NCBI GenBank assembly: GCA_963696385.1
Contig: CAVOKF010000004.1
Coordinates: forward strand, 1,024,001-1,088,000
Direction of reading: 5' to 3'
DNA from: an uncultured delta proteobacterium
Lineage (GTDB): Bacteria; Myxococcota_A; Polyangia; Polyangiales; Polyangiaceae
Length of the DNA stretch: 64,000 nucleotides
The position numbers and the translations under genes were made by a program. The notes beneath the pieces are model-generated. The model did not search any database and had not been told where the DNA came from. It saw only the letters and a list, made by a program, of their open reading frames with translations. Below, in pieces: positions 42,489 through 60,837 of this stretch. Each line of letters starts with the position of its first letter. The first letter of the stretch is position 1.

Positions 42489-42513
42489 CATTCAAGAAGA
42501 AGGCAGACTGACC

Positions 42514-42990: not shown

Positions 42991-43019
42991 AAGGACCGTC
43001 CACTGTCGAGGAGACCGCC

Positions 43020-43229: not shown

Positions 43230-43245
43230 GCTGGAGAATCAGACG

Positions 43246-43539: not shown

Positions 43540-43587
43540 CCGTCGGCCCAGGGGGACGAGGCAACAAGGACCGAACAGGACGGCAAG

Positions 43588-44214: not shown

Positions 44215-44384
44215 CCCGGCCGATTTCTTCTTGCGTCTCGGACGCAGCCTACGAAATTGGAGATGCAACGCCCTTTCGTCGAGACGATGATCGGCGCCGT
44301 TCCGCGTTTTCGGCTCCTGGAGAGAGCAGGCGCGGCTCGGACGAAAGATTCGAAGGCGCTCGATTTTGCCTCTGGCTGAAGTCT

Positions 44385-45485
44385 TCAAGCGACGAGCGCG
44401 ACGCTCTTGACCAGGGCGTGAACGACGAGCCCCGGTGCAAGCTCCAGCACATCGCGCGAGCGCCTCGTGATTCGCGCCAAGAGGGGGGTCTCCAAAGTCC
44501 CGACGGCAAGGCGAATGTTCACCCGGTCGGGACCGTCATCTTGCAGATCCACGATGCGCGCCGCGAGGACGTTGAGAATGCTGGTGCGGCCCGGTGGTTC
44601 ACGCGCAAGGCTGACGTCGCGGGCGAGCACGCGGACACGAACGTGCGCACCGTTCGGTCGATCGACCCGCCCGATCCAGAGCGACACGTCGCCGAACACC
44701 ACTCGGGTGAGCTGATCCGTCTCGTCGTATTCTGCCACCTCCGCGCCAATCACCACGCCACTCTCGTCGAATCGTGCGATCGGAAGGTCGAGCCGCGCGA
44801 GCATGTCCGCGGTGGGTCCGCTCGCGACGGCGCGACCGCTCTCGAGAAGCACGAAATGGTCGGCGAGCCGAGCAACCTCTTCGAGCGCGTGGCTGACGTA
44901 GATGATAGGAATCGACAGTCCATCGCGGAGCCGTTCCAGGTACGGGAGGAGCTCCGCTTTGCGGGCCAGATCTTGAGAAGCCAGCGGCTCGTCCATGAGC
45001 AAGAGCCGGGGGCCCGCGAGCAGAGATCGCGCGATGGCCACGCGCTGCCCCTCGCCACCGGAAAGGTGCGACGACGACCGATCAAGCAGGTGTCCAATGC
45101 CGAGAAGTTCGACCACGGACTGAACGTTGGCGAGGGCCCGGGCCCCGCCGCGTTTGCGACCGTAGGCGAGATTGCCTCGGACCGAGAGGTGGCGAAAAAG
45201 GCTCGGGTCTTGGAATACGTATCCCACGGCACGTTCGTGCGTCGGCACGAACACCCCGCGGTCATCGTCTTGCCAACAATCGTCGCCCACATGAACGGCG
45301 CCACTCGCACGCTCGAGTCCCGCGAGCACACGCAGGCACGTGGTCTTGCCCGAGCCGGAGGGCCCGAACAATGCCGTGATTCCACCGCCAGGCAGATCCA
45401 ACGCGACGCTAAGCCGAAAGCTGCCAAGCGAGAGGTCAAATGTCGCCCGAACGCGGCGGGATTCAGAACGGTCTTGGCTTGGCAC
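44385..45485 (-). CDS. modC: molybdate ABC transporter ATPase
   Basis: GPSGSGKT, LSGGE, MDEPLAS, TOBE tail. Confidence 0.93.
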   Translation of the reverse strand: MPSQDRSESRRVRATFDLSLGSFRLSVALDLPGGGITALFGPSGSGKTTCLRVLAGLERASGAVHVGDDCWQDDDRGVFVPTHERAVGYVFQDPSLFRHLSVRGNLAYGRKRGGARALANVQSVVELLGIGHLLDRSSSHLSGGEGQRVAIARSLLAGPRLLLMDEPLASQDLARKAELLPYLERLRDGLSIPIIYVSHALEEVARLADHFVLLESGRAVASGPTADMLARLDLPIARFDESGVVIGAEVAEYDETDQLTRVVFGDVSLWIGRVDRPNGAHVRVRVLARDVSLAREPPGRTSILNVLAARIVDLQDDGPDRVNIRLAVGTLETPLLARITRRSRDVLELAPGLVVHALVKSVALVA

Positions 45486-45559
45486 GGAAACGAGTGCAAC
45501 GCGAAAAGGACGAGGAGCGAGAAGGCCACCAGGCGACCCGTCGGGTCACGAACATCTTC

Positions 45560-45856
45560 TCAACCAAACTTGAACATGACTCCGTAGCCGCCGCGAGGGT
45601 AGCTCCATTCGACCTCGCCGCTGGGACCGCAGAGGACGCGGCAGGTTCCGCATTCAAGGCATCCGTCGACGCTGATCTCCACTTGCCCGGCGTCGTTGAC
45701 GTCGTAACAGCCCGCGGGGCAGGCCTTGGTCAGCGAGAGAAGTGCCTTGGACGGCTTGGCGTGTGGCTTTACTTTGATGTGAGGCCGGGCTGCGTCGACC
45801 TGATAGCGGTTCTGGAAAAGCTTCTGCTCAATCTTGACCGGAGTTGTCATCGCCAT
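45560..45856 (-). CDS. fixX: ferredoxin-like FixX
   Basis: [30 protein letters not shown]. Confidence 0.93.
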
Positions 45857-47151
45857 ACCCTCGCCAGTTTGAACGCATCCCCGAGAAGTCCAGTCATTGT
45901 TCGCCCCTTGCGAAAGGATGACACGATCTCCCTTTCTTTCGTTAGCTTGTCCGTGCCGTCGACGCGAAACCATGTCTGCGAGGCTTGGCTCATCAGCCTC
46001 GGATACAAGTCGACCATGTGCCGGTTGCGGTGCATGAAGTTGGGCATGTCCTTGTACTTTTTCATGTCCTTCATCACGAACGTGGCGTCGAGGCGCCGCT
46101 TGTATTCGGCCAGGTTGGCGCTCGTGCATGCGGCTCCACGCCGATGAAGCTCGATGACGGTTTCGGCCGCGACGCACCCGGTCGTCATGGCCAGGTTCGA
46201 CCCCTCGCGGTGAAGGCCATTGACGAAGTGCCCGGAATCGCCCACGACAATCCAGCCGTCGCCGTACAGCTTGGGAATCGCGCGGTAGCCGCCCTCCGGA
46301 ATCAGATGCGCCGAGTACTCCTTGATTTCCGAACCAGTCAGCAGCGGCTTGAGGCTCGGATGGCTCTTGAATTTCTCGAGGAGCGCATAGGGTGTGATGC
46401 CCTTTTCCGCGAAGTCGGACACGAGACACCCGATCCCGACCGAAAGCGACTCTTTGTTCGTGTAAATGAATCCCATGCCGACCATTCCGTCGGTCACGGT
46501 GCCCATGGCTTCGATGACAACGCCTTCGTTGTCTTTCAGGTTGAAGCGATGGTCGATGACCTCTTGCGGCAAGAAGTGCATCTCTTTGACGGCCAAGGCC
46601 ACCGTTTCCGGTTTGAGCTCGGGGCGCAGTCCTGACCGTTGACCCACGAGGCCGTTGACTCCGTCGCCCAGGACGACGACGTTCGCAAGCAGGGGTCCGC
46701 CTTCGCGATCGGTCGTGACGCCGATGACCCGCCCGGAGGCGTCCTTGACGAGATCCGTCACCGTGGTCTCGCAAATGAGTGCTGCTCCAGCTTGGCGCAC
46801 GCGGCGACTGAACCACTTGTCGAAGGGGGCTCGAATGATCGTGTAGCGATTCGGCCGCTCCTCGTTGAAGTCTTCGGACCGGTAGTGCATGCCCATGTGC
46901 GAAGAGTCGTCGAGCATCCAGAGTCGCTGTTCAATCACGTGGCGTTCAAGCGGCGCGTCTTCGCGAAAATCCGGGATGATTTTTTCGAGCGCGTCCGCGT
47001 AGAGAATGGCCCCTTGGACATTCTTCGATCCGGGGTACTCCCCTCGTTCGAGCTGCAGGACGTTCAGCCCCGCTTTGGCCATCGTGTAGGCGGCGGCATT
47101 GCCCGCCGGCCCGGCGCCTACCACGATGGCGTCGAAGCGTTCACTTTCCAT
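45847..47151 (-). CDS. fixC: FAD oxidoreductase FixC
   Basis: [29 protein letters not shown]. Confidence 0.95.
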
Positions 47152-47166
47152 GGGCGTTCTCCTGGG

Positions 47167-48261
47167 TCATCCCGCCAAGCGCACCGCCGAAAGGCGTTTG
47201 CGAAAGGCTTCCGTCAGTGCGGGGAGCAAGTGCACCGCGTCTGCCACGATGCCGACGTGGGCGAAGTCGAAGATGGGGGCGTTCGGGTCCGTGTTGATGG
47301 CCACGATGAGGTCGGCCCCCTCGACCCCCACGCGATGTTGGACGGCGCCGGAGATGCCGGCAGCGACGTACAATTTGGGGCGAATCGTCTTACCTGTTTG
47401 ACCGATCTGCCGTTCTGCGGGGATCCACCCCTTTTGCATGACCGGCCGGCTGCCGCCGTGTTCCGCCCGAAGGACGGCCGCCAGGTCCTTCACCAGGCGG
47501 AAGTTCTCGGGCGATTTCAGGCCAAGCCCTCCGGCGACGACGATGTCCGCGTACGCGAGCTCGACCTGATCCGACGCGTGGTCGGGGATGAAGGAAAGAA
47601 CCTTGGTGACGATCGATTCCTCCGGCATGTCGACCGCAAGCTCGACGATCTGGCCCCTGCGTCCCGGCGTTCGCTGGGGCATCGAAAGGACGCGGGGCCG
47701 GACCGTGGCCATTTGCGGGCGGTAGTTCAACGTGAGAATCGTGCACAGGAGCGAGCCACCGAACGTGGGGCGCGTCGCGGCCAACGAACGTTCGTCGTCG
47801 ATGGCCAGGGCCGTGCAGTCCGCGGTCAATCCGGTCAGCAGGGTTGTCGCGACGGAGCCAGCCAAATCGCGTCCGAGTGTGGTAGCACCGAGAAGCAAGA
47901 TCTCCGGCTTATACGCGTGGACCAGCTCGGTCATGGCCTTGGTGAAAGGCTCATTGCGGTAGTCGGCCAGCACGGGGTCCGTCACGAGGTACATCACGTC
48001 AGCGCCGTGCTCGAAGCCTTCGTTGGCGGCGTGCAAAAGGCCGGAGCGGCTCGAGCCCAAGACAACACCCGCCAGCTCCACCCCCAGCTTGTCGGCGAGC
48101 TTTCGGCCCTCACCGAGCAGTTCGAGAGAGACAGGGTGGATTGCCTGCCGTTCGTACTCGACGAAGACCCAAACGTGCCGATAGACCTTCAGGTGCTCGG
48201 GAAGCTCCTTCTTCTTGGAGGCGCGTCCGCTGGCGGCCGCTTTCGCAGGAGCTTGCGTCAT
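47167..48261 (-). CDS. fixB: ETF alpha FixB
   Basis: [29 protein letters not shown]. Confidence 0.95.
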
Positions 48262-48277
48262 GGGTGACGGGTGCTTG

Positions 48278-48293
48278 AGCAACGTTCGTTCCA
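48278..48293 (-). promoter_or_regulatory. sigma54 promoter for fixBCX-modC
   Basis: TGGAAC-gaacg-TTGCT; twin UAS at 48442-48457 and 48464-48479. Confidence 0.65.
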
Positions 48294-48527
48294 GCCCTGG
48301 CGTCAGGCCGACCCCGGTGAATTCCGCGGAGTGCCGAACCGTCCCCTTTTGCAGCCAAGCCCCGAGCCTCGTGAGGTTTCGGACCACGCGGGGTGCACCG
48401 GAGGGCCCTCGTCCGCTCAAGCGGTGGCCCGATCGCCGGATTGTTGGACACCGCACACGGTCTTGTCGATCATCCGACAACTCGCGTTTTGGGCGTCGCA
48501 TTCCCGGCCAAAGGCCCGGCTTTGCCC

Positions 48528-48543
48528 TGGTACGCGAGTTGCT
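48528..48543 (+). promoter_or_regulatory. sigma54 promoter for the SIR2-like gene
   Basis: TGGTAC-gcgag-TTGCT. Confidence 0.75.
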
Positions 48544-48654
48544 GGGTCGAGAGCGCGCCGCTCCATCCGCTTCCCGAAGGGGGCCAGGGGGCGCGCATGC
48601 GTGATGACGCGACTCGTGTTCCAAAGCCCCGCTTTCTCGAAAGGAAGAAAAGAC

Positions 48655-49545
48655 GTGACCCTAGCCGCCCCCACCGTGGAGCCGCTTTCCTGGACCGCGA
48701 TCGAGCCCCACCCGGACAGTTGGTTTCGGGAAGTCAGCGAGGGCCTACGCGCGGGAAGGTTGGCTCCGTATCTGGGTCCGGGAGTCATCGAACTTGCGCG
48801 CGCCTCCGTCCCATCGACGCAAGAGGCGCTCGCGGCGTTTTTGGGAGGCAAGGTCGCGCTGCCGCGCCGCGCGCGGGGTAACCTCGGGGCGGCCGCCCAA
48901 TACATCGAAAGCCACCGGCACAGGAGCGTGGTCGTTCAATTGATGGCGGAGGCCTTCGCCGTGCCGGTGTCGCCTCTTGCCATTCATCGGTACCTCGCCG
49001 AGCTGCCGCTGCCCCTCGTCGTCGACACCTGGTACGACGGCGCGATGCGCGCGGCCTTGGCGGGCCGGGCTAATTGGGGCGAAATTCAGGGCGTTCGCCG
49101 CTCGGGACTCGGCGGGGATCCGTACTACGCGACGTACGACGCAACCGGAGTGGCGTGCCCGATCGAGGTGGCAGACGGGTGGAAAACGGTTCTCTATAAG
49201 CCGCATGGTGCGAGCACGCCGGCGAAAAACTTCTTGGTCTCGGACTCGGACTACGTAGAAGTTTTGACCGAGATCGATATTCAGACCCCCATTCCTGAAG
49301 TGGTCAAGACGCGGCGTTCTCGCGTTGGCTTCGTGTTTCTCGGTTGTCGCCTCAACGACCAAACTTTGCGCTGCTACGCTCGTCAGCTGCTCAAGCGATC
49401 GGGCGAACGCCACTTCATCGTGATCGAGCCGGGTGTCGCAACCAGAAACGAGCGGCGTTTCATCAGCGAGCACGGCCTGATGGCGCTCGTGAGCCCGTTG
49501 GCCGCCGCCCTCGATCAGTTGACGGCCTTTCCGCGTGCGGCTTGA
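48655..49545 (+). CDS. nif-associated SIR2-like domain protein
   Basis: [35 protein letters not shown]. Confidence 0.8.
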
Positions 49546-49662
49546 CCCCTTGTCAGTTGATGACTGAGGCTTGGCTGGCTTGGACATGGGGGAGGCAACG
49601 CGACCCGGAATGGCCCTTGCTTGGGTAGCTCGCATGGTTCCGACTGCAACCGCCGGTATGCC

Positions 49663-50181
49663 ATGAAACTGAGCGCCGACGTTCGGCTGCCGTTTGGGCG
49701 TGAAACCGTATACGTCGCGTATCGCGACGAGATGGGCAAGGTGCTCGAATTTTTGCCGAGCGTTCGGGCCGTCGACCTGAAAGCGCGACGTGAGGACGCG
49801 TTGGGGGTGCATCTGGTCCGCGAGTGGCACGGAGGAGGGGAGGTTCCCGCCGCCGTTCGCGGGATCGTGACCGAGTCCATGCTTGCGTGGGACGACTACG
49901 CGACTTGGGACGCGACGTCGTACTCCTGTGACTGGCAGATCGAATCGCGCAGCTTCCCGGACGCTCTTCGCTGCCGCGGCCGCACGTCATTCGTCGACGA
50001 GGGCGCAGGACAAACTCTCCTTGCCCTCCGCGGCACTATCGAGGTGCAGGCCCGCAGGCTCCCTGGAGTCCCGCCATTTCTGGCGGTTTCCGTGGCTCGT
50101 TCGGTGGAGGAGTTCTTGGTGGACAAAATTGAATCGAACGTGCGGCACGCGGTCGGCTGGTTCGAGAGGAATCGACCATGA
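49663..50181 (+). CDS. DUF2505/SRPBCC-like protein
   Basis: VYVAYRD...W.GGGEVP...WDDYATWD; myxobacterial-style family. Confidence 0.55.
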   Translation: MKLSADVRLPFGRETVYVAYRDEMGKVLEFLPSVRAVDLKARREDALGVHLVREWHGGGEVPAAVRGIVTESMLAWDDYATWDATSYSCDWQIESRSFPDALRCRGRTSFVDEGAGQTLLALRGTIEVQARRLPGVPPFLAVSVARSVEEFLVDKIESNVRHAVGWFERNRP

Positions 50182-51182
50182 ACGCCCCGCCTCGCTCGAC
50201 CGGCTCCGGCGAGAGCCACGTTCTGCCGGTCCGTCTGCGGGAACTCCAATCGAAGTTTGAGGATCATGTCATCCTTGCGGTGCAAGGTTGGAATAAGCAC
50301 ATTGTCGACGAGACCCAACTCGAGGGCATGAGCGCGTACGCGAAGGCCGACGCCCGGGCCAAAGCCAGAGCGGAGGGCCTCGACGGATTCCTGCTCACGC
50401 TGGACTCTGCGAGTTACGATGCCGTGATGCGGGGCGCTGACGACCGCGCGCTCCGGCACGAAATGTACGAGGCCTATGCGACCCGCGCCTCCGATCGCGG
50501 ACCCCGGGCCTACCGGTTCGACAACGGCCCGATCATCGAGAACATCTTGGCCTTCCGTCACCAGGAGGCCACCCGGCTCGGCTTTCCGAACTATGCGGAG
50601 TGGTTGCTGCAAACGGAGGTGGGCGGGACGGCAGACGACGTGGAGCGCCTTCTGCTCGAGCTCAATGCGAAGGTGCGCGGGCGTGCCCAGGCCGAGCTAC
50701 ACGAGGTGTGGGCGTTCGCCAAGGCGGAGCACGGATTGAAGGGATTTCGCCCCTGGGATCTTCGGTATTACACAGAAAGGCTGGAACGAACGAAGCACGG
50801 TGTCGCTGACGTTCAGACAGGTGAATCGTTGCCCGGCACGATCCGCGGGCAGCCGATCTCCGGCGGCTCGTGCGATGTCGCGCTGACGCGGCTTTATGAG
50901 ATCGAAGCGGCGCTCTTCGATCTGCGAGTGCACCGCGACTATGTCCCCGCCGAGAAGGCATCTCGGCTACGCTCGCACGTCTTGGACACGCTGGCCCAGG
51001 CCCGTCGAGAGGTTAGCCTGCTGCCGCCGCCCCCGTGGGACCGGTTCGCCAGTAGCTTCGGGGTCGGCTTTGGCAACCGCTCGGCGCCCACCTGGGTCAT
51101 GGGCCTTTTTCTGCAATCCGGGCACGCCGACGATCCCGTCGGACGATTTAACGAGGGCGCTGGCGGGCTTACCAATGGCTAG
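50178..51182 (+). CDS. M3 oligopeptidase A-like protein with large internal deletion (no HExxH)
   Basis: LRHEMYEAYATRAS..DNGP, LGFPNYAE, PWDLRYY, FDLRVH; metalloprotease motif absent. Confidence 0.65.
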   Translation: MNAPPRSTGSGESHVLPVRLRELQSKFEDHVILAVQGWNKHIVDETQLEGMSAYAKADARAKARAEGLDGFLLTLDSASYDAVMRGADDRALRHEMYEAYATRASDRGPRAYRFDNGPIIENILAFRHQEATRLGFPNYAEWLLQTEVGGTADDVERLLLELNAKVRGRAQAELHEVWAFAKAEHGLKGFRPWDLRYYTERLERTKHGVADVQTGESLPGTIRGQPISGGSCDVALTRLYEIEAALFDLRVHRDYVPAEKASRLRSHVLDTLAQARREVSLLPPPPWDRFASSFGVGFGNRSAPTWVMGLFLQSGHADDPVGRFNEGAGGLTNG

Positions 51183-51311
51183 CCGGAACCGCGACGATGC
51201 GCTCTCGCCATCATGCGCCCCGCATTCGGCGTACGGACATTCCGTGTGAAGTTTGTCGGAACTGCGACACGAGGCATGAACGAAGAGAGCGGATTCTCGC
51301 CGGCTGGGCTG

Positions 51312-51327
51312 TGGCACGTATCTCGCT
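51312..51327 (+). promoter_or_regulatory. sigma54 promoter for the HesB-globin genes
   Basis: TGGCAC-gtatc-TCGCT; UAS at 51254-51269. Confidence 0.72.
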
Positions 51328-51340
51328 ACGAGTCTAAACG

Positions 51341-51748
51341 ATGGCGCCCAATTCGATGACAAGCGACACGCTTTCCCTCTCGCCCTCGGCATCGCCCTCG
51401 AACTCGCCCGCCGTAACGGCCGCAGCGGAACAATTCATGCGGCGCATGGTGCGGTTCGGGGGCGCCGGCGCCGGCTTTCGACTCGTGGTGAGTCTCGGTG
51501 GGTGTTCGGGGTTGGGTTCGGAGTTCAGTCTCGAATCCGGGCCGAGGCCGGGCGACCGCGTTCTCGAGGTGAACGGCCTGAAGATTTTTCTCCCCGCCCA
51601 AAGTTACGAGCTTCTCGATGGGGTCACCATCGACTTCGCCGACACGCGAATACAAACGGGGTTGACCTTTCTGCATGCGAAGGCGAGTGGCGGATGCCAG
51701 ACGAGCAGCGCGCCCAAGTTGGTGCAGCTCGCGCCGCTCCGCTCCTGA
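51341..51748 (+). CDS. HesB/IscA-like carrier (paralog of 33279-33671)
   Basis: AEQFMRRMVRFGG..GFRLVVSLGGCSGL. Confidence 0.8.
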   Translation: MAPNSMTSDTLSLSPSASPSNSPAVTAAAEQFMRRMVRFGGAGAGFRLVVSLGGCSGLGSEFSLESGPRPGDRVLEVNGLKIFLPAQSYELLDGVTIDFADTRIQTGLTFLHAKASGGCQTSSAPKLVQLAPLRS

Positions 51749-51804
51749 CCGCGGACGGTGGATGGGCGCATGCTGCTGCGAGGCCAGCCTCGGACACGAA
51801 CCCC

Positions 51805-52218
51805 ATGGCGGCGATGGAATTGAAAACGGCGGAGGTGCCCAACCCGCACTTTGCCCGGATAGGCGGCGCGCCCGTCGTTCGTCTCCTTGTGGAGTCGTTC
51901 TATCGCCGGATGGACACGTTGCCCGAGGCGGCCGGTATCCGTGCGATGCACGCCGAGGATCTCACCGAGATTAAATTCGTGCTCCAGCTCTATCTCGTGG
52001 AGTGGCTGGGCGGTCCGAAGGACTACAGTCAGCGTCGCGGTCCCCCGAGACTGCGCGCGCGGCACTCGATGTTCCCCATCGGCGTCGCGGAGCGCGACGC
52101 ATGGATGCTGTGCATGCGCGGCGCGCTCGACGAGGTCGTCGCGGACGCGGAGCTCCGGAATCAGCTCGAGAACGCGTTCTTGCGGACCGCGAACGCGATC
52201 GTGAACACGCGCCCCTGA
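51805..52218 (+). CDS. group II truncated haemoglobin
   Basis: IGG...LVESFY..MD, WLGGP..YS..RG.PRLRARH..FPIG..ERDAW. Confidence 0.9.
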   Translation: MAAMELKTAEVPNPHFARIGGAPVVRLLVESFYRRMDTLPEAAGIRAMHAEDLTEIKFVLQLYLVEWLGGPKDYSQRRGPPRLRARHSMFPIGVAERDAWMLCMRGALDEVVADAELRNQLENAFLRTANAIVNTRP

Positions 52219-52344
52219 GTGAGACCGTCAGCCCTCCTCCCGCGTGGAGCAGGTCCCAAAGTGGCGTAGACGCGTAAGAAAGGCCCACGTGATTCACGCG
52301 GCATCGGGTTTCTGGCTCCAGGGCGCTTTCCTACGCAGGCAATC

Positions 52345-52360
52345 CGGCACGGTTCGTGCT
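52345..52360 (+). promoter_or_regulatory. sigma54 promoter for the FeSII-rubrerythrin genes
   Basis: CGGCAC-ggttc-GTGCT; no clean UAS seen nearby. Confidence 0.6.
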
Positions 52361-52395
52361 GAGCCGGATCGAACGAACAGGAGCGCGAATCCGAT

Positions 52396-53304
52396 ATGGC
52401 CAACGTAACATTCTCTTCTCCGGTGATGGCGCGGGACATCACCGTCTATGCCGTCGCGGGGGATCGCGGAACCATCCTCGCACTCGCCAAGGAGCACAAG
52501 ATTCCCATCCCTTTCGATTGCCAGGACGGCGAGTGCGGATCCTGTCTCGTCGAAATCAAGCACCTATCGGTCGGCGCGCGGTACGGCATCGCACTCACCG
52601 AGAAGGAGAAGGAACTCCTCCGGCAACTCGGCAGGATTAGCCGGGAAGAGATCAAGGACGCCGAGGTCAACGACATGCCGCCGCGGTTCCGACTGGCGTG
52701 CCAGTGCTTCGTTCGAAACGAGGATATTATCGTGTCCTTCGAGGGGGATACGACGCTGCCCCCCAAGGGGCCGGCTCTCTCGATCGCCGCGGCCGTTTAC
52801 CGGGGCGGCGTCTCGATCCGAACGCTGGAGGAGTTCTTGAGCTATGCGGTCAAAGTCGAGGAGGACGCGGCTATCCACTTCGAACGCCTCGCAGAGGCAA
52901 TGGATGCTTGCGGCAATCGGGATGTGGCCGTGCTGTTTCGCCAACTCGGTGGGTATTCTCGCCTCCATCTCGAAGAGGCCAAAGCGAAGTCCGTGGCGCA
53001 CGGAGTCGTGGTGACCCTTCCTGCCAACTCCGCATGGCCCGATCACGAGACACCGGAGCGTACGGCGTTCTGGGCGGGGCACCCCTCGCGCTCGCGGCTC
53101 GACGCGCTCAAGGCCGCGCTCCAAGGCGAGCGGCGCGGCTTCGAATTCTATTTTGCCGTCGCCGGGACCACGACGGATGCGGGCATCCGTGCCGTGGCCA
53201 AAGAGTTCGTCAAAGAAGAAACGGAACACGTCGATACGCTCAAACAGTGGATCGCGAAAGAAGAAGCCTCGCTGCGAGCGCCGTTCGAGGGCGTCACCTC
53301 ATGA
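52396..53304 (+). CDS. FeSII (Shethna II)-like 2Fe-2S ferredoxin fused to a rubrerythrin/ferritin-like domain
   Basis: TFSSP..VAGDRGT..IPFDCQDGECGSCLV..LTEKE..DMPPRFRLACQ..ED; C-terminal four-helix bundle with EETEH. Confidence 0.85.
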   Translation: MANVTFSSPVMARDITVYAVAGDRGTILALAKEHKIPIPFDCQDGECGSCLVEIKHLSVGARYGIALTEKEKELLRQLGRISREEIKDAEVNDMPPRFRLACQCFVRNEDIIVSFEGDTTLPPKGPALSIAAAVYRGGVSIRTLEEFLSYAVKVEEDAAIHFERLAEAMDACGNRDVAVLFRQLGGYSRLHLEEAKAKSVAHGVVVTLPANSAWPDHETPERTAFWAGHPSRSRLDALKAALQGERRGFEFYFAVAGTTTDAGIRAVAKEFVKEETEHVDTLKQWIAKEEASLRAPFEGVTS

Positions 53305-53332
53305 TGCGGGCGGAGGCGAAGGAAAAGTCGCG

Positions 53333-53788
53333 ATGAACGACGTGAACACCTTTCTGGCGCACGCCATCCAACTCGAACGCGACGCGGCGCGGCGTTTCGA
53401 AGACTTGTCGCATTCGATGCAAACCGCCGGCAACCGTGAGGTCGAAGCGCTCTTTCGTCGCCTCGGGGAGTTTTCGAGGCTACACCTCCAGACGGCCCTG
53501 GCGCGCGGCGGCTTCCGGAGCCTGCCGGAGATTTCACCGGCCGAATTTCAGTGGCCCGACGGCGTCACACCCGAAGCGGCGGGGTGGCAAGGTGTCGACG
53601 CCGGGCTCGACGTGCACGGCGCGTTGCAGGTCGCGCTCGAAGGCGAGCGCAGCGGCCACGCCTACTACGAGGCGATTGCCCACACCTCGGACGATCCCGA
53701 AGTGGCCACGATGGCGCTCTCGTTCGCGGAGGAAGAGGCGCAACATGTCTCCGAACTGGAGCGCTGGGTCGCACGTTTTTCGCCCTGA
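53333..53788 (+). CDS. rubrerythrin/ferritin-like protein
   Basis: AIQLERDA..F, ALEGE...YY, EEEAQH. Confidence 0.85.
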   Translation: MNDVNTFLAHAIQLERDAARRFEDLSHSMQTAGNREVEALFRRLGEFSRLHLQTALARGGFRSLPEISPAEFQWPDGVTPEAAGWQGVDAGLDVHGALQVALEGERSGHAYYEAIAHTSDDPEVATMALSFAEEEAQHVSELERWVARFSP

Positions 53789-53908
53789 CACCGCGGTCCG
53801 AAAAATGTCGTACGCTCAGTGTTCGCGGCTCCGGCGCTCGGCGCAGCGCTGGCGAATGTTCGTTTGTCATTTGCAGTTGGGCGATCAGCCCAGCACGCGA
53901 GGCTCGCC

Positions 53909-54115
53909 ATGACGGACCATGTGTACAAGATTGAAGAGTTCGTGGGATCGTCTCCGATTGGACAAGATGAGGCGATTCGAAACGCGATCAAGCGGGCGGC
54001 CGAGACGCTGCACCGTCTTCGATGGTTCGAGGTGACGGAAACTCGGGGCCAGATCACGGACGGCCGTATCGTGCATTGGCAAGTTACGGTGCGCGTGGGT
54101 TCGACGCTCGAATAG
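53909..54115 (+). CDS. dodecin (flavin-binding)
   Basis: DHVYK.EEFVGSS...LRWFEV.E.RG...HWQVT. Confidence 0.9.
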
Positions 54116-54401
54116 TGCCTTCTCACGGCGACCCGCCCGATGAGATCGAGCGGGGGGCGCGTCACGGCCTTCATTGCCCGCCGTCCCGTGTCGCGACACC
54201 GACAAGACCTGGAACGAACGACATCGCTCCAGCCGGAAGTTGCCTCTCGTCACTTATGGACCGGCGCCAGAGCTCGGTCGGCGCCTTCTTCGATCTCATC
54301 GTCGACGAACGCCCTTGTCAGGAACCGTACAGGGTCGCAAACCTCGCAAAGGCAACGCCGTCGACGCGACGAATGCAGCGGTAAAACAAGGCACTCCTGG
54401 C

Positions 54402-54417
54402 TGGCACGGGCGTTGCG
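54402..54417 (+). promoter_or_regulatory. sigma54 promoter for FeSI-ygfZ
   Basis: TGGCAC-gggcg-TTGCG; UAS at 54189-54204 and 54316-54331. Confidence 0.8.
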
Positions 54418-54438
54418 CTCAGGATGGGATGGAGCACG

Positions 54439-54783
54439 ATGGACGCCCCCGCAGCACTCGAATTACCGGTCGTTTTCCGACACCATGCGTTTTGCTGCTT
54501 TCAGCAACGCCCGCCGGGGCACCCACGCGGGAGCTGCTCCGGCCTGGGTGCCGGCCCGCTCTGGGAGCGCCTCAGCGGACAACTGCAAGCAAAGGGGCTC
54601 GCCGACGCTTCGCTGGTCGCGACGGGCTGCCTCGGCTTTTGCGGGGCCGGTCCGCTCATGGTCGTGTACCCCGCCGGGGTCTGGTACCAGCCGCGAACGC
54701 CCGCCGACATCGACGAGATCGTGCAGTCGCATTTCGTCGAGGGCAAACCGGTCGAGAGGCTCATCGTCGTGCTGAAGGGCTAG
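54439..54783 (+). CDS. thioredoxin-like 2Fe-2S ferredoxin (FeSI/Shethna I family)
   Basis: HAFCC.Q.RPPGHPRGSC; GCLGFC..GP.MVVYP.GVWY. Confidence 0.88.
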   Translation: MDAPAALELPVVFRHHAFCCFQQRPPGHPRGSCSGLGAGPLWERLSGQLQAKGLADASLVATGCLGFCGAGPLMVVYPAGVWYQPRTPADIDEIVQSHFVEGKPVERLIVVLKG

Positions 54784-54808
54784 CGCACGCGAAGGAGACC
54801 CATTGCAG

Positions 54809-55795
54809 GTGATCCCTCTTGCTCTGCCCCGGCCGTGGCTCGACGCTCCCGCAGCCGTGCACTTGACGGGCGACCGGCTGCTTCGCATCGAAGGAAGTGG
54901 CAGTCGGCGCTGGCTCAACGCGATGCTGACCGCGGACCTTCGCACGGCGGCTCCCGGCGTCGCACGCTACGCCCTGTTGCTCTGCGCAACCGGCGGGATT
55001 GTCAGCGACGCCTGGGTCGTCGAGCACGCTGTCGGGGAGCCCGAACGACTGACGCTCGTCCTGCCCGAAGCGTGCGCGGAGCGCGCCGCGAGGGAGCTGA
55101 CGAGATTCGTGGTCAATGAGGAGATTGCCCTGACTTTCGACGACGACGTCCGCGTCGTCTCCCTGCAAGGCCCCCGCGGCCGCGACCTGCTCGACATCGA
55201 CGGTCCGGTGGCCGTTGCAAACGCCTACCCTTGCGCCCGGCTGGGTCCGCAGGGACTCGACGTGTGGGTTCGAGCGCCGCAGGTCGACCTCGCGATGGCA
55301 CTCCTGTCGGCGAGCGCGTCCCGGCTCGGCGGCGGGGCGATGAACGCCATCGAATGGTGCTCGGCTCGAGTCGCACTCGGGGTTCCGCAGGCCGGAACCG
55401 ACTTCAACGAGACCACGTCCCCGCACGAGGCGGGGATCGAGGCGCGCGCCATCTCGTTCACCAAGGGCTGCTATTTGGGCCAGCAAACCGTGGCCAGGCA
55501 ACATCGCCGTGGTGGGCTCACGCAACGGCTCGTCCAGCTGGACGTCGAAGGCCCCCAGGGGGTCGAAAAAGGCTCGGGGGTGCGTGGCCCAAGTGGCGAA
55601 GAGGTGGGCCGCGTCACGTCGGTGGCCTCGGCGAGCGACGAGGGCAGCAGCGCTTTGGCGCTCGTCTACCTGACTGCGCCCTTCGCACAGGTCGGCGCTC
55701 GCGTGATGGTGGGTGAACGGCAAGCTCAGGTCCGAAGCATCGTGGGCCGGCTCGGGACTGCCGCGCCACCACACCACGCGACGGCAGGATGGTGA
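54809..55795 (+). CDS. ygfZ: folate-binding Fe-S repair protein YgfZ
   Basis: signature ISFTKGCYLGQ; start uncertain. Confidence 0.85.
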   Translation: MIPLALPRPWLDAPAAVHLTGDRLLRIEGSGSRRWLNAMLTADLRTAAPGVARYALLLCATGGIVSDAWVVEHAVGEPERLTLVLPEACAERAARELTRFVVNEEIALTFDDDVRVVSLQGPRGRDLLDIDGPVAVANAYPCARLGPQGLDVWVRAPQVDLAMALLSASASRLGGGAMNAIEWCSARVALGVPQAGTDFNETTSPHEAGIEARAISFTKGCYLGQQTVARQHRRGGLTQRLVQLDVEGPQGVEKGSGVRGPSGEEVGRVTSVASASDEGSSALALVYLTAPFAQVGARVMVGERQAQVRSIVGRLGTAAPPHHATAGW

Positions 55796-55985
55796 TCTGC
55801 CGCTTTGCGTCCGGCTTCTCCGGAGCCCGAGCCCTCCATCGCATCTTCGTCGCTTGCTGCCATGGGCAACGATATGGCGACAAGTGCTTTCCGGGCACTC
55901 AGGCCGTCCATCATGGGATTACGTTGCGTCGACGACGAGAGTTCGCGCCGCGAATACTTGGGGCGCGGAAACGTTTCGGCAACAC

Positions 55986-55999
55986 TTGATTAACATCAA
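55986..55999. promoter_or_regulatory. FNR/FixK box upstream of nifA
   Basis: perfect TTGAT-taac-ATCAA. Confidence 0.8.
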
Positions 56000-56129
56000 A
56001 GGTAGTCTTCGCACGCTTTTCAGTTATGGGCCGATTTTTACTCGGCGGACGATTGCGAGGCGGCCCAGCGGGTGTAACGTGATTGGGTGACACGGAAACG
56101 GCAACCGTGGAACTGAGCGCAGCCGATTG

Positions 56130-57923
56130 ATGCGATCCTCGACCCTTTCGCCCGTTCCTTCCTATTCGGATGGCGAAGCCGTGCCGGATTCCGATGAGCG
56201 AGCTGAGCCCGGCTCTGCGAACTCGGAGATCGCGCTCTACGGTGTCTATGAGATCTCCAAAGTGCTCAACGAGCCAGGACGCCTGGAGGTCACACTCGGA
56301 AAGGTGGTCCATCTGCTGTCGAGCTTTCTCGACATGCGACATGGCTTGATCGCTCTTCTCGGGGAGCGCGGCGATCCGGAGATTGTCGTGGGAAGCGGAT
56401 GGAGCGAGGCCACGGCAAAGCGGTATTTCGATCGCCTGCCCGAGCGCGCCATCGGACAGATTGTCGTCACGCAGATGCCTCTCGTCGTCCCCAACATGAG
56501 GGACGAGGCGCTCTTCGAAGGGTGGGACTTCTCGGGCGACCGGGATGTGGCCGGCGACATTGCGTTCATCGGGGTCCCCATCAAGGACCGGGGAGAGGTG
56601 GTGGGGACGCTCACGATCGATCGAGAACTGGGGCCGCAGCGAGCCGTCCCGCTCGATGACGATGTGCGTTTCCTCGCGATGGTCGCGAACCTCGTCGGGC
56701 AGACGGTTCGCCTCCAGCGTATGATTGCTCGCGATCGCGAACGGCTCATGGTCGAGCGAGCGCGTCTCGAGAAGAGCGTCGAGCGGAAGACGTCGCCGGA
56801 CGAGAGCCACGCGCTCGGCGACATTTTCGGTGGGAGCAAGGCTCTCCATGCCGTCGTCGAGAAGGTGCGCATCGTTGCCCGGAGCAACTCGACGGTTCTT
56901 TTGCGAGGCGAGTCCGGCACGGGCAAGGAACTCTTCGCTCGCGCCGTCCACGATCTGTCGCCACGCCGCGATCGGGCGTTCGTGTCGGTCAACTGCGCCG
57001 CGTTGCCTGAGGCCGTGCTCGAGTCCGAGCTTTTCGGGCACGAGAAGGGAGCGTTTACGGGGGCGGCTTCGCAGCGCAAGGGGCGCTTCGAACTCGCCGA
57101 CGGCGGCACGTTGTTTTTGGACGAGATCGGAGAGATCTCACCTGCTTTTCAGGCCAAACTCCTTCGGGTGCTCCAAGAGGGGGAATTCGAGCGCGTCGGA
57201 GGGACGACGACGCTGAAAGTCAACGTGCGCCTCGTCGCGGCCACCAATCGCAATCTCGAGGAAGCGGTAAGTCAGCGCGAGTTTCGCGCCGACCTCTACT
57301 ACCGGATCAGCGTCGTGCCCATCTTCCTGCCGCCGCTGAGGGACCGGCCCAGCGATATCCCGCCGCTCGCCGAAGAATTTCTTCGGCGGTTCAACGAGGA
57401 GCACGCCACGGGACTCACCCTCGGGGCCGGTGCGATTTCCGTGCTCACGTCGTGTTCGTTTCCCGGCAACGTGCGTGAGCTCGAGAACTGCGTGCGTCGC
57501 ACCGCAACGCTCGCGGCAGGAACCACCCTGGTCGCGGACGACTTCGCCTGCAAGCACGACGAGTGCTTGTCGGCCGTCCTGTGGAAAAAGCCGATGCAGC
57601 CGCCCGACGTCGGCTTTGTCCCGTTGCCGATTACTCGTGCGCGAAGCGTTGCGCACGGCAGCGTGTCCGCGCCGGCGGGCCCGGGCTGCCAACCATCCGC
57701 CTCACCTGAGGGTGAATCCGAATCCGTCACGATCTCGCTGTCAGGGTCGGATCGTCCGGCGCCGGTCGCCCAGGGGGCCAACAAGAGCGATCGAGATCGA
57801 CTCATCGAGGCCATGGAATCCGCAGGCTGGGTTCAAGCGAAGGCGGCGCGTCTTCTTGGAATCAGTCCGCGACAGATCGGCTATGCGCTGCGCAAGTACG
57901 ACATCGAAATCAAGAGGTTTTGA
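56130..57923 (+). CDS. nifA: nif-specific sigma54 activator NifA
   Basis: GAF domain, [16 protein letters not shown]11-C-X19-C-X4-[12 protein letters not shown]...RQIGYAL. Confidence 0.97.
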
Positions 57924-57967
57924 AAGCCACGCGCAGCGATGCCTACGCGTGTCTCGTCAGCAAGCCC

Positions 57968-58720
57968 TCAAGACTCGAGCGACGTCACGCGATACTCGAC
58001 CGCGTCGTCGAAAATGCGTGTTCCGCCGCCTTCGGCGACGATTTGCATGAGCCTCTCGGGATCTCGGACGACGACCCCGGCGAGGTAATTCACGCCGAAA
58101 TCCGACCATTCGGACATCCAAGGAACGCTCGGACCGAGAAGCACCACAGTGGCTTTTCGGCTGAGATCCAGCAGGCGCGGCATGGTTTTGTTCGCGATCG
58201 CGCTTGCCGTCACAAAGACCCAGTCCGCCTTCGGAAGTACGGTTTCAGCCGCCGTGTCCGGCAGCGTGCCGGGGGTCGCGCGCCGTTCGATGCAGATGTA
58301 CCGGAATCCCGCCCACAGCATATCGAGGCCTGGATAGCGCCCGATGACCACGACCTCGGCGCCGTCCAGTCGGGGAGCGAAGTGCGCGAACACGCGCAAG
58401 TGAGCGGGCGCTTGCGCGACGATGGCTTGCGACCGCGCCATGCAACGATTGTCCGGGTCGTTGACCACGGCATTGATCGCGGCGCAGCCGACGGCCGCTT
58501 CGCAGGGATCGAAGCTTCGAACCCAAGGAGCGACTTCGGCGACCGGGCGACCGGCGAGCGTTCCAGGGAATGCGAGGGTCCGCGGCGGATCGACGGGGCT
58601 AAAGCAGAGGCCCGATTCGCGTACTTCGGCCACGCTCCAGTTCAAGCCGAGGAGCACGCGTCGGAGCGGCTGGGTAGAGCGCGCTCGGTCGACGAGCAGG
58701 TCGTAAAGGTCCCAAGGCAC
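57968..58720 (-). CDS. DUF364 / Rossmann-like putative metal-chelation protein
   Basis: AAVGCAAINA, VVVIGRYP, VTASAIANKT, LLGPS.P. Confidence 0.75.
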   Translation of the reverse strand: MPWDLYDLLVDRARSTQPLRRVLLGLNWSVAEVRESGLCFSPVDPPRTLAFPGTLAGRPVAEVAPWVRSFDPCEAAVGCAAINAVVNDPDNRCMARSQAIVAQAPAHLRVFAHFAPRLDGAEVVVIGRYPGLDMLWAGFRYICIERRATPGTLPDTAAETVLPKADWVFVTASAIANKTMPRLLDLSRKATVVLLGPSVPWMSEWSDFGVNYLAGVVVRDPERLMQIVAEGGGTRIFDDAVEYRVTSLES

Positions 58721-58724
58721 CGAC

Positions 58725-59289
58725 TCAGCCCACTCGTGCGCTCACGCGGTCGCCCCCCCTCGCGATCTCGCCCCACCAGTTTTTGAGAACCCAGAGATGG
58801 GCGTCGAGCATCGTTGCCATTCCGTCGCGCAAGGATAGCCAGTTGTGGACCATCCCGCGAGGCACGGCGGTCAGGACCGGGCAGCCACTGAATGTGGCCC
58901 GTGCCAGCTCCCGTCTGAGCCCGTGTCCACGTCCTTCCTCTTTACCGAAGCGTGAGACGAAAATGAGAATCCGCGTCGGAGTCAATCGCGGCTCGAATTC
59001 GGCCGGCCGCGTGCCGGAGCGCAGTCGGGTTCAGCGCACAGTCCTCCGCCCCCCGTCCGAGGTCTCGACAAATCGAGAACGTCTCGCCCGTGGCGACGTC
59101 GCGCAACATCCTCGGCGCGTTGGGCCCGCATCCCGGGCTGCCCCGCGGAAGCTGAATGACTCCCCCCAATCGAACGCCTTCGGTCGCAAGGTCACGTGCG
59201 AATACGAGCAGGAGCTCGTCCACCGCGACGCCCACGTCGTAAACCACGGCGGCGAGCTTACGCGGGTCCATCGTCACTGCGTCGTCCAT
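58725..59289 (-). pseudogene. DUF2478 family protein, frameshifted near 58970
   Basis: DLGRGAEDCALNP in one frame; SRFGKEEGRGHGLR...PVLTAV in another. Confidence 0.7.
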
Positions 59290-59640
59290 CTCTCTCTCCG
59301 CTCCCCCGGTTCGTACAGTCACCGACACAACGACGGCCGCTCGGCGGTCTTGTCCGCCTCTGTGGCGTTCGCAAGCGCCGCGCCAGATCCCGGGCACCCG
59401 CTCGCCGGCTCGGCCTGGACACCGCACACCCGTGTGCGAGCTCACTCATTTCCCTCATCGCGGCTCACGGCCCATCGCGGCTCAACCCGCCGGGGTGCTT
59501 CTCTTAGGCCTCGCAGCCGGAGGCCGGGCTGCACGTGCGCCGGCCCTGCGGTCGAATGGAGGGTCGGAAATGTTACAAAAAGCCGTGTCGCAATTGTTGC
59601 TTTTGCGACCTGCGAGCGCAGGGAGCCGCGTTCGTTCGCG

Positions 59641-59695
59641 ACCTTAGAAGGCCTAAATCGTCCGTGCCTCTAGGAGCCACCTTACAAGGCCTAAA
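59641..59695. repeat. direct repeats ACCTTA(G/C)AAGGCCTAAA x2, 38 bp apart
   Basis: 59641-59657 and 59679-59695, 16/17 identical; degenerate AAGGCC copies near 59719 and 59854. Confidence 0.7.
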
Positions 59696-59892
59696 AGGAA
59701 ACCAGGTCATGTTCTACGTAAGGCCGATTTCGCGCGAGCTTGCCGCCCGCGCAACGGACAATTGAGCCGTTTCCTTCGGGACGGTGTCCGTGCCGAGTCT
59801 CGACGGATACCGCGGCCACGCATCCCCGAAAGTGTTTCTTTTTAGTTCCCATTAAGGCCTGACTGTTGCACACGGGTGCTACCACCTCACCG

Positions 59893-60837
59893 ATGAAGCG
59901 CGCTCGGCCCCCTCTGTCACCTCAGGACGTTCATCGCGGGGAGGCCCTGCTCACCACAACGGAGGTGGCGGGGCTTCTGCGCGTTCACCCGAAGCATATC
60001 TACCGACTGCTGCGCAGGGGCCTCCCGGGGCACCGCGTCGGCGGCGAATGGAGGTTCTTCTCCGAAGAGGTTCTGCGATGGTCGGGTGCCCCGCCCGCGC
60101 CGAGGCGGCCCGGGCGTCGTGCCGACCCCGTGCCACGAACGGAGGTGCTTCGTTCGGATCCCGCGCCGCTCGTTGCGGCCAACGGCGATCTCGTGGTGGA
60201 GTACCTCCTGTCGCGGCTGACGGCCACGGGTCTCCTTTTGTTCGGTCATGTGCAGGCCGATCGGAGTGAGGGGCTCGAGCTCTTGAAGCAAGGCAAGGTC
60301 CTTGCTGCCGGCTGTCATGGAAACGAGATCCCCGGCGAGCTCGCCAATCAGCGTTTGGCCTTCATCCATCTCGTCGATCGCCAAGTGGGCCTGGCTGTGC
60401 GTCGGGGCCTGCGCGTACGCAGTCTGCGCACCCTGGGACGCCTCAGGCTGGCGAGCCGCCCGCGAACAGCGGGCGTACGTGTCCGCTTCGACCACGAGCT
60501 CCGCCGGCTGGGTGTCGACCCGGATGCGGCGCACGCGGGCGCCGTCGTTTTGCCTTCGCATCGTGAGGTCGTGTGCGCTGTCGCCCGGGGCGAGGCCGAC
60601 GTCGGTCTCGCTTCGCTCGCGTGGAGCGGTCGCGTCGGGTTGGACTGCCTGCCGCTCTGCCGCGAGCCGTACGGCCTTCTCGTGCGCGCGAGCCTGCTTG
60701 GCGACCCTCGCGTGGTTCGACTTTGCGAGGTCGCGCAGGACTCCGTGTTTCGCCGCGAGGTCGGCACAACCCCCGGATACGACGCCCGATTAACGGGCAC
60801 CATTTCCTATCTGTCACCCACGAAGAGCCCATCATGA
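59893..60837 (+). CDS. excisionase-type HTH plus PBP-like domain regulator (oxyanion-sensing type)
   Basis: LLTTTEVAGLLRVHPKHIYRL...LPG.RVGGEWRF; RPRTAGVR; VARGEADVG. Confidence 0.82.
   Translation: MKRARPPLSPQDVHRGEALLTTTEVAGLLRVHPKHIYRLLRRGLPGHRVGGEWRFFSEEVLRWSGAPPAPRRPGRRADPVPRTEVLRSDPAPLVAANGDLVVEYLLSRLTATGLLLFGHVQADRSEGLELLKQGKVLAAGCHGNEIPGELANQRLAFIHLVDRQVGLAVRRGLRVRSLRTLGRLRLASRPRTAGVRVRFDHELRRLGVDPDAAHAGAVVLPSHREVVCAVARGEADVGLASLAWSGRVGLDCLPLCREPYGLLVRASLLGDPRVVRLCEVAQDSVFRREVGTTPGYDARLTGTISYLSPTKSPS

Follow-up and report, generated by a model that had tools for sequence, protein, structure and literature searches.

The DNA analysed here is a 64,000-nucleotide stretch (positions 1-64,000, hereafter the window) from an uncultured Polyangiaceae-like bacterium, and it is filled by a large nif island of ∼64% G+C. 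Within it, seven genes on the + strand occupy positions 51254-55795, 5′ of nifA (Table 1); they encode a HesB-like protein, a group II truncated globin, a fusion of an FeSII-like [2Fe-2S] domain with a ferritin-like bundle, a free paralogue of that bundle (Rbr2), a dodecin, a thioredoxin-like ferredoxin, and a YgfZ/CAF17-like protein. An initial annotation had described this block as one NifA-driven, hitherto undescribed cassette for nitrogenase O2 defence and Fe-S repair. All seven genes and three sigma-54 elements were found in their places before nifA, promoters P1 and P3 with TGT-N10-ACA sites, and the family assignments were borne out by profile and structure matches. The block is probably a set of three sigma-54 (NifA-type) units of nif accessory genes, brought together in this lineage within a horizontally acquired island, of which only the pair formed by the fusion and Rbr2 behaves as a conserved unit.

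Table 1. Features of the block and of the two genes that follow it, in window positions.
Feature	Position	Strand	Details
NifA-type upstream activator site TGTCGGAACTGCGACA	51254-51269		Exact TGT-N10-ACA; 43 nt 5′ of the promoter P1 element
Promoter P1, putative sigma-54 -24/-12 element TGGCACGTATCTCGCT	51312-51327	+	GG/GC spacing as in the consensus; 9/11 consensus positions
HesB-like Fe-S biogenesis protein, atypical	51341-51748	+	135 aa; PF01521 33.3 bits (cut-off 26.3)
Group II truncated globin, glbO type	51805-52218	+	137 aa; PF01152 (Bac_globin) 111.6 bits, E 3e-32
Promoter P2, putative sigma-54 -24/-12 element CGGCACGGTTCGTGCT	52345-52360	+	Identical in locus L001; conserved in ten aligned upstream regions
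FeSII-ferritin-like fusion (Fer2 + rubrerythrin-like)	52396-53304	+	302 aa; [2Fe-2S] domain 1-118 and four-helix bundle ∼144-294
Rbr2, free paralogue of the fused ferritin-like domain	53333-53788	+	151 aa; 40-41% identical to fusion residues 137-302
Dodecin	53909-54115	+	68 aa; NF043052 101.9 bits (cut-off 75); PF07311 E 2.4e-25
NifA-type site TGTCGCGACACCGACA	54189-54204		TGT-N10-ACA, 5′ of promoter P3
NifA-type site TGTCAGGAACCGTACA	54316-54331		TGT-N10-ACA, 5′ of promoter P3
Promoter P3, putative sigma-54 -24/-12 element TGGCACGGGCGTTGC	54402-54416	+	Exact TGG-N8-TTGC; 10/11 consensus positions
Thioredoxin-like [2Fe-2S] ferredoxin	54424-54783	+	119 aa (114 aa from 54439); 1f37 E 6.6e-26
YgfZ/CAF17-like protein, second genome copy	54803-55795	+	330 aa; TIGR03317 78.9 bits (cut-off 49)
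nifA	56127-57923	+	TIGR01817 725.2 bits (cut-off 528.85); GAF, sigma-54 AAA+, and HTH_8 domains
DUF4213/DUF364 gene, convergent with nifA	57968-58720	-	PF04016, PF13938

At both promoter P1 and promoter P3, a GG-N10-GC element is accompanied by an upstream TGT-N10-ACA site, and promoter P2 consists of the -24/-12 element only. Because promoters P1 and P3 lie so near the first ATGs of their genes (29 and 22 nt before them, respectively), the ATGs at 51356 (HesB-like gene) and 54439 (ferredoxin gene) are probably the true starts, with very short leaders. Transcripts from promoters P1, P2, and P3 are predicted to begin near 51337, 52371, and 54428, respectively. Across the window, TGT-N10-ACA occurred 15 times against 4.8 expected, a number reached in 0 of 100 shuffles; the loose TGG-N8-TTGC pattern was not enriched there (13 vs. 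6.7 expected, with 5 of 100 shuffles reaching 13). Relatives of the fusion gene were then used for comparison, at one genome per species: 324 of 353 candidate stretches encoded a relative, and the best 80 loci, all covering approximately residues 1-290 of the fusion, were kept. Among the 78 usable fusion-gene upstream regions of other genomes, 34 had a sigma-54 element agreeing with the consensus at 9 or more of its 11 positions (vs. 56 of 1600 random places), and 34 carried TGT-N10-ACA (vs. 53 of 1600 random places). When ten fusion upstream regions of myxobacterial, gammaproteobacterial, and betaproteobacterial origin were aligned, a GGCAC-N5-TGC block was the sole conserved stretch; the P2 element was kept across four proteobacterial and myxobacterial groups, whereas its flanks were not, and P2 is the best supported of the three candidate promoters. 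A search for terminator-like sites gave none on the + strand in the gap from ygfZ to nifA, and a sigma-70 scan of 51000-58200 found no promoter. Judged from these motifs, the three units would depend on NifA.

The first 118 residues of the fusion align without a gap to FeSII of Azotobacter vinelandii (5ffi_A, E 1.4e-33), with all four cluster ligands (C42, C47, C50, and C102) in register. In an alignment of 75 fusion sequences, R24, D41, D44, C47, C50, C102, E71, D93, R99, and D118 were invariant, and C42 (74/75), K70 (71/75), K72 (73/75), and R or K at position 76 (73/75) were nearly so. The N-loop insertion with helices hN1 and hN2, a feature of FeSII (Franke et al., 2025; PMC11754109), is kept at residues ∼59-97, as seen from the gapless alignment and from model helices at 69-77 and 83-91. 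Of the FeSII residues that contact NifH and NifDK, namely R24, E41, D44, K63, R72, N73, K76, and E118 (PMC11754109), R24 and D44 are kept in the fusion and four are replaced conservatively (E41D, R72K, K76R, E118D), whereas K63Y and N73E are not conservative. On the partner side, the NifH of the window keeps E68, R100, N107, and E111 (chain numbering), and the TEDAAVFG loop is present in its NifK. In 74 of the 75 fusions, N replaces R92, the residue that in Azotobacter FeSII holds the partner’s C-terminal carboxylate in the reduced state (PMC11754109), and K53 is replaced by E. In the Azotobacter protective complex, the NifH [4Fe-4S] cluster is directly overlain by the free terminus of FeSII, A122 (PMC11754109); the fusion lacks a carboxylate capping that cluster because its linker, with invariant P122 and G137, and then the four-helix bundle continue past residue 118. 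An AlphaFold2 model of the fusion (predicted local distance difference test 75.7, predicted template modeling score 0.53) has helices at 144-171, 175-201, 234-258, and 262-294, and the best Foldseek match of its N-terminal domain is FeSII inside the nitrogenase complex (9cu1_N; template modeling score 0.87, root-mean-square deviation 1.7 Å). Compared with the FeSII proteins of A. vinelandii and A. beijerinckii (5FFI, 8RHO, 9CU0-2, 9IEY), the fusion shares the cluster cysteines, the N-loop helices, R24, D44, K70, E71, and R99, and may bind nitrogenase; it differs from that free 122-residue protein by the linker and ∼160-residue ferritin-like bundle added after residue 118, and by a gene preceded by a conserved sigma-54 element.

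The C-terminal part of the fusion (residues 143-289) and a profile of 31 Rbr2 orthologues (positions 4-149) both matched 2oh3_A, with E-values of 2.5e-17 and 9.4e-34, respectively; 2OH3 is an uncharacterised COG1633 protein of Magnetospirillum magnetotacticum. Foldseek likewise placed 2oh3 first for the C-domain of the model (template modeling score 0.71). Beyond 2oh3, the Rbr2 profile was linked only weakly to other proteins (encapsulated ferritins, Dps, TM1526, rubrerythrin, and symerythrin), similarity to true rubrerythrins was marginal (E 0.008-0.02), and the Atlas matches for Rbr2 were generic ‘ferritin/rubrerythrin family’ clusters only. Common to the C-domain and Rbr2 are E155, S188-R189-x-H191, W214-P215, P220-E221, E245, Y252, and E274-E275-x-x-H278; the helix-A glutamate, H191, E245, and E274-E275-x-x-H278, along with PF02915 matches and a predicted four-helix bundle, are shared with the rubrerythrin and ferritin-like di-iron superfamily. 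The designation of both proteins as rubrerythrins stands as regards a ferritin-like bundle and fails in its particulars: neither the fusion nor Rbr2 has a rubredoxin-like Fe(Cys)4 domain, and in both, as in 2OH3, the first ExxH motif of rubrerythrins is replaced by SRxH (S188-R-x-H191), with the second (E275-x-x-H278) present. What the fusion does resemble is the logic of rubrerythrin, in that an Fe-S or Fe-cysteine electron domain is paired with a carboxylate bundle. In Methyloversatilis, no Rbr2 lies beside the fusion, and the nif region, at a distance from the fusion, instead has an Rbr2-like gene directly next to a thioredoxin-like ferredoxin gene (G013:C1:3527519-3528285 and G010:C32:58432-59199), a hint that both Shethna-type ferredoxins have ferritin-like partners.

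A mechanism can be proposed on this basis. As in Azotobacter, oxidation of the [2Fe-2S] cluster would lead the FeSII domain of the fusion to bind NifH and NifDK, with the tethered ferritin-like metal domain taking the place of the free C-terminus of FeSII; this domain would react with O2, H2O2, or released iron, and electrons would be drawn or passed through the [2Fe-2S] cluster. In its strongest form, which we put forward tentatively as a serious possibility that nevertheless falls short of likely, the fusion and Rbr2, perhaps with the thioredoxin-like ferredoxin as a second electron partner, would be a widespread, sigma-54-regulated second type of nitrogenase O2 guard: the bundle, tethered at the position of the FeSII C-terminus over the NifH cluster, would by reacting with O2 or H2O2 both trigger the [2Fe-2S] switch and detoxify the oxidant, making protection catalytic rather than purely steric. 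The same proteins could instead supply iron and electrons for nitrogenase maturation, with ferritin-like domains storing or delivering iron, ferredoxins carrying electrons, and the HesB-like protein and YgfZ inserting clusters, and parts of the data suit such a role: ferritins come next after 2oh3 among the folds most like the C-domain (E ∼4e-4), the weak profile matches of Rbr2 include encapsulated ferritins, Dps, and TM1526, the nif-specific Fe-S assembly genes nifS and iscU-hscBA-fdx lie beside the block genes, and the Methyloversatilis Rbr2-like gene adjoins the thioredoxin-like ferredoxin. We nonetheless consider it unlikely, both for the fusion and its neighbours as a whole and in this division of labour, given that the FeSII N-loop and most NifH and NifDK contacts are invariant in the 75 sequences and that the model N-domain is best matched by FeSII in its nitrogenase complex; a plain electron carrier is disfavoured because such conservation of contact residues would be unexpected.

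Of the remaining genes of the block, those for the globin, dodecin, ferredoxin, and YgfZ were followed in 40 of the 80 fusion-bearing genomes (G001-G040, corresponding to loci L001-L040). A-type Fe-S carriers (IscA, SufA, HesB) have three conserved cysteines in the pattern C...CxC. The first gene product, annotated initially as such a carrier, belongs to the HesB-like family but has two of the three family cysteines (that of GGCSG and one C-terminal) with no CxC, and its TIGR00049 score of 54.6 bits lies under the NCBIfam cut-off of 58.8; a canonical CxCG A-type carrier is encoded elsewhere in the window (40119-40439, - strand). The nearest structures to glbO are 2xyk (E 3e-27), 5d1v, 2bkm, 1ngk (HbO), and 1ux8 (YjbI), which are group II 2-on-2 globins. 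A globin orthologue was found in 38 of the 40 genomes; in 20 it lay on the nifD contig within 40 kb and in 3 more beside the fusion (total 23/40), and in 12 genomes, among them G005, G007, G010, G012-G015, G017, G019, G020, and G029, its distance to nifD, across nifH, is 1.4-1.6 kb. In many betaproteobacterial genomes glbO is divergent from nifH, unlike the arrangement in the window. Group II truncated globin genes inside nif islands have been reported from free-living and photosynthetic Bradyrhizobium and from Azorhizobium, with a role in nitrogenase O2 protection proposed (10.1101/2021.02.03.429501; 10.64898/2026.05.28.728359), and according to the introduction of the latter work their function is experimentally untested in all cases (10.64898/2026.05.28.728359); the window glbO is of the same kind but sits after the HesB-like gene and before the fusion. 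Dodecin was present in 13 of the 40 genomes, but a link to nif was seen for it in just two of them, G001 and G008.

The ferredoxin aligns with Aquifex aeolicus Fd4 (1f37) in all four cluster cysteines and more distantly with A. vinelandii FeSI (5abr, E 1.1e-18). Its description as FeSI-like holds for the thioredoxin-like [2Fe-2S] type, common to FeSI and Fd4 (5ABR, 1F37) and commonly nif-linked, but the window protein is nearer to Fd4 and falls under the NCBIfam equivalog cut-offs for both the Azotobacter and Clostridium types (NF041613 81.6 bits, cut-off 195). Homologues occurred in 33 of 40 genomes, and in 16 they were on the nifD contig within 40 kb. The YgfZ/COG0354 motif is KGC[YF]xGQE. 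The block copy reads KGCYLGQQ, its last residue Q rather than E; with this motif, its conserved cysteine, and a TIGR03317 score above cut-off it otherwise conforms to the family, and it differs from it in being an additional copy within the nif island, with 33% identity to the other copy of the source genome on contig C3. Close orthologues (58-59% identity) were found only in G001 and G002 of the 40 genomes. Two more distant nif-linked paralogues, both with KGCYxGQE, are also placed among putative sigma-54 signals: in Methylocystis rosea SV97 (L081:8060-8896, - strand) ygfZ is divergent from nifH, with a sigma-54 element and two shared TGT-N10-ACA sites, and in a Steroidobacteraceae metagenome-assembled genome (MAG; L082:12942-13856, + strand) it follows a sigma-54-driven glbO in the order glbO, ankyrin/rhodanese gene, small open reading frame, ygfZ. 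No paper on YgfZ in nif clusters was found, as judged by titles and abstracts only.

The fusion is widespread, with >1000 protein clusters matching at E ≤1e-10 and members in the alpha-, beta-, and gammaproteobacteria and the myxobacteria; culturable carriers include Methylocystis, photosynthetic Bradyrhizobium, Rhodopseudomonas, Derxia, and Pelomonas. In R. palustris, RPA1927/RPA1928 (‘ferredoxin-like [2Fe-2S]’), NifA-regulon genes located away from the nif cluster, might be the fusion-Rbr2 pair, although no paper was found for RPA1928 and PMC13327599 does not contain the name. Of the 40 fusion-bearing genomes searched, 34 contained nifD, above the family cut-off in 31, and the six misses were MAGs. 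In a 251-genome sample of the order of Methylocystis (G039), FeSII-like matches at E ≤1e-40 were found in 9 of 34 nifD-positive genomes and 0 of 217 nifD-negative ones, figures for which no statistic is given because related genomes are not independent; six of the nine were full fusions and three were FeSII-only. The fusion is thus restricted to diazotrophs in the sampled order. Unfused and fused forms coexist within one order, since one genome has a free FeSII-only gene (G222:C13:30736-31089) at 1.8 kb from nifD, with 61% identity to residues 1-119 of the fusion. A second fusion-like copy, 52% identical and with two in-frame TGA codons, was seen ∼8 kb from nifD in an alphaproteobacterial genome (G375:C4:2779198-2780082).

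Conservation of the block as a whole was assessed by tblastn with the window proteins (E ≤1e-3, coverage ≥45%), counting five other block genes around each fusion locus (HesB-like, globin, dodecin, thioredoxin-like ferredoxin, and YgfZ). None of these was present at 63 of the 80 loci, one at 13, two at 4, and three or more at 0, and a core nif or fix gene was within the fetched flanks at 25 loci, leaving 55 with none. Five of the nif-less loci, from Methylocystis, Methyloversatilis, Bradyrhizobium, Rhodopseudomonas, and Telmatospirillum, had unrelated neighbours by Pfam. By comparison, an Rbr2-type open reading frame lay within 2.5 kb of the fusion at 45 of the 80 loci (34 on the same strand, 11 divergent), and only this pair behaves as a conserved unit. 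The nearest relatives, Polyangiaceae-labelled MAGs with 85-87% identity, contain the block genes in rearranged form: in G001, DUF364 is followed by nifA and ygfZ, which are on the opposite strand with ygfZ directly 5′ of nifA, and then by fusion-Rbr2, with ferredoxin, globin, and dodecin 10-57 kb away; in G002, ygfZ adjoins the ferredoxin and globin-fusion-Rbr2 stand separately. Elsewhere the order is fusion-Rbr2-dodecin (L008) or thioredoxin-like ferredoxin-DUF364-glbO-Rbr2-fusion (L006 and L009, Macondimonas-like gammaproteobacterial MAGs). Because the genes are scattered and re-ordered in the nearest relatives, the seven-gene arrangement is read as a local mosaic.

These data bear directly on the view that the block is a single co-evolved cassette, dedicated to O2 defence and Fe-S repair and working as a unit under NifA. 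In its favour, the genes are contiguous on one strand, with three sigma-54 elements and directly 5′ of nifA; sub-blocks recur (ygfZ-nifA in G001, and those of G002, L008, L006, and L009); and six of the seven genes lie within ∼58 kb in G001, in a search that did not include the HesB-like gene. The view is improbable in the face of 0 of 80 loci with at least three of the five other genes, the many loci apart from nif and fix, the variation of order and orientation even among the nearest relatives, and the small number of lineages in which dodecin or a close YgfZ orthologue has a link to nif; the same gene set was not co-localised at these loci of other genomes, and a conserved, dedicated seven-gene unit is not supported.

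In a 151-genome sample of the window’s own order, nifD was found in 2 genomes, the source genome and one other, and the fusion in the source genome only; a same-genus genome in that sample had neither nifD nor the fusion. The nif island is, on this rarity, best read as horizontally acquired by the Polyangiaceae-like bacterium. That the block genes are mere hitch-hikers of the transferred island, with no nif-specific role and with promoter motifs that are chance matches, fits the rarity of the island, the degraded peptidase gene flanking the block, and the lack of enrichment of the loose sigma-54 pattern, but is highly improbable given the retention of the P2 element across four groups without its flanks, the enrichment of TGT-N10-ACA in the window, and the confinement of FeSII-like genes to nifD-positive genomes in the sampled order.

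RNA contigs of at least 99% identity were compared with 40500-60499, with their positions used and depth not used for ranking. A metatranscriptome run of RNA study P1 contained 55% of the sampled words of 51254-56200. Within the block, its contigs extended from the 3′ end of the HesB-like gene across glbO (51607-52212), over the entire fusion and on into Rbr2 (52384-53425), and from the ferredoxin gene into ygfZ (54439-55065); nifH, nifX-fdxN, fixC, and fixB were also covered. In a run of RNA study P2, contigs lay over nifH, nifX, fixB, and the fusion (52398-52963). Run X2 held a 0.11 share of the words and contributed contig positions only; run X1 left three bins uncovered (49838-50504, 56508-57174, and 59176-59842), and cover was very low in X3 and X4, uncovered bins being no measure of silence. 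One contig of run X1 had 21 extra bases at 53318, in the spacer between the fusion and Rbr2, an insertion that is probably a strain variant.

Taken together, the observations favour three units: unit 1, from promoter P1, would comprise the HesB-like gene and glbO; unit 2, from promoter P2, the fusion and Rbr2 and probably dodecin; and unit 3, from promoter P3, the thioredoxin-like ferredoxin and the nif-specific YgfZ, with possible read-through into nifA. Rather than parts of one machine, these would be independently mobile modules of an accessory pool common to diazotrophs. In them the globin would bind or consume O2 or NO, and the HesB-like protein and YgfZ would supply or repair Fe-S clusters under high demand. 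The O2-defence and Fe-S repair roles first assigned to these genes thus retain the fit of known family roles and a setting inside a nif island under sigma-54 and NifA-type signals, without the single dedicated unit.

Several points weigh against the three units and the proposed guard. The 177-nt spacer before the fusion gene contains no perfect TGT-N10-ACA to accompany promoter P2, and at promoters P1 and P3 either the next ATGs may be the true starts or the motifs may not be the promoters. The background for the upstream-element counts was random places and not other gene starts, nifD was looked for in only 40 of the 80 genomes, and RNA contigs show presence and not strand, transcript start, or level, with DNA carry-over possible. 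Within the fusion itself, no free C-terminus is available near residue 122, ∼180 more residues following; because of this, together with the changes of K63 to Y and N73 to E, Azotobacter-style binding is not assured. Nor is a canonical di-iron site, because the glutamate of the first ExxH is absent (SRxH).

The need to protect nitrogenase from O2 is a main obstacle to transferring nitrogen fixation to crops, and to our knowledge Azotobacter FeSII is the only protein guard understood structurally. FeSII and FeSI are classical Azotobacter proteins. Some novelty had been claimed for the whole block; with these two proteins classical and glbO in nif islands already published, it is the FeSII-ferritin-like fusion that appears to be undescribed. 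A fusion of FeSII with a ferritin or rubrerythrin was not found described in the literature searched, which did not extend to supplements such as the gene tables of the Bradyrhizobium preprints, where it may be listed; Franke et al. (2025; PMC11754109) makes no mention of homologs, fusions, or rubrerythrin, and the rubrerythrin treated in the relevant part of PMC5748707 is unrelated to the fusion. The two FeSII complex structures published in Nature in 2025 (Franke et al., PMC11754109; Narehood et al.) are, from the sections consulted, of the free Azotobacter protein. The fusion with Rbr2, under a putative sigma-54 promoter, is a candidate new variant of conformational protection, and a fused FeSII would mean that such protection is more widespread than has been assumed and more varied in mechanism than the Azotobacter protein. 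Because the block is a lineage-specific mosaic of separately mobile modules, the targets for engineering or knock-out are the modules (fusion + Rbr2, glbO, and ferredoxin + YgfZ) and not the block.

Beyond the block, the island contains nifV, nifHDK, nifEN, nifX, nifB, nifT, and a HesB-like gene; nifS, a nif-specific fdx-hscA-hscB-iscU set, nifW, and the canonical A-type carrier; and a second nifH, nifX, a NifX-associated gene, fdxN, nifQ, modC, fixCB, and a SIR2-like gene. For YgfZ, the HesB-like protein, IscU, and HscA, the source genome has housekeeping genes in addition to the island copies; globin, fusion, Rbr2, and dodecin are each single-copy in it. The iscU-hscB-hscA-fdx set lies at 34943-38793, and its IscU and HscA are 76-81% identical to those of the housekeeping isc region on contig C5. 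The two nifH copies (22021-23286 and 40807-41778) have 95% protein identity.

Some genes of the window appear interrupted. nifE (26669-28199) is in two frames, with an N-terminal part at 26669-27250 and the remainder at 27039-28199, the latter matched by NCBIfam only from profile position 117, which reflects either a real frameshift or an assembly indel. The DUF2478 gene (58725-59445, - strand) is likewise in two open reading frames (profile positions 1-95 in 58942-59445 and 96-159 in 58725-58985), possibly a second frameshift or assembly indel, and at 44349 an RNA contig has one base fewer than the window. Just 5′ of the block, an oligopeptidase A (M3) remnant (50178-51182) matches only profile positions 157-353 of 680, with a C-terminal-like stretch directly after the matched part, which suggests an internal deletion that would take out the catalytic region. 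The DUF4213/DUF364 gene (‘putative heavy-metal chelation’) recurs near the fusion or nif genes in L001, L002, L006, and L009. Finally, the SIR2-like domain protein (PF13289; 48700-49545) adjoins fixB and has relatives of 36-58% identity at 11 of the 80 fusion loci; at nine of these (L011, L016, L018, L057, L058, L061, L062, L066, and L074; 47-58% identity) nif genes are nearby.

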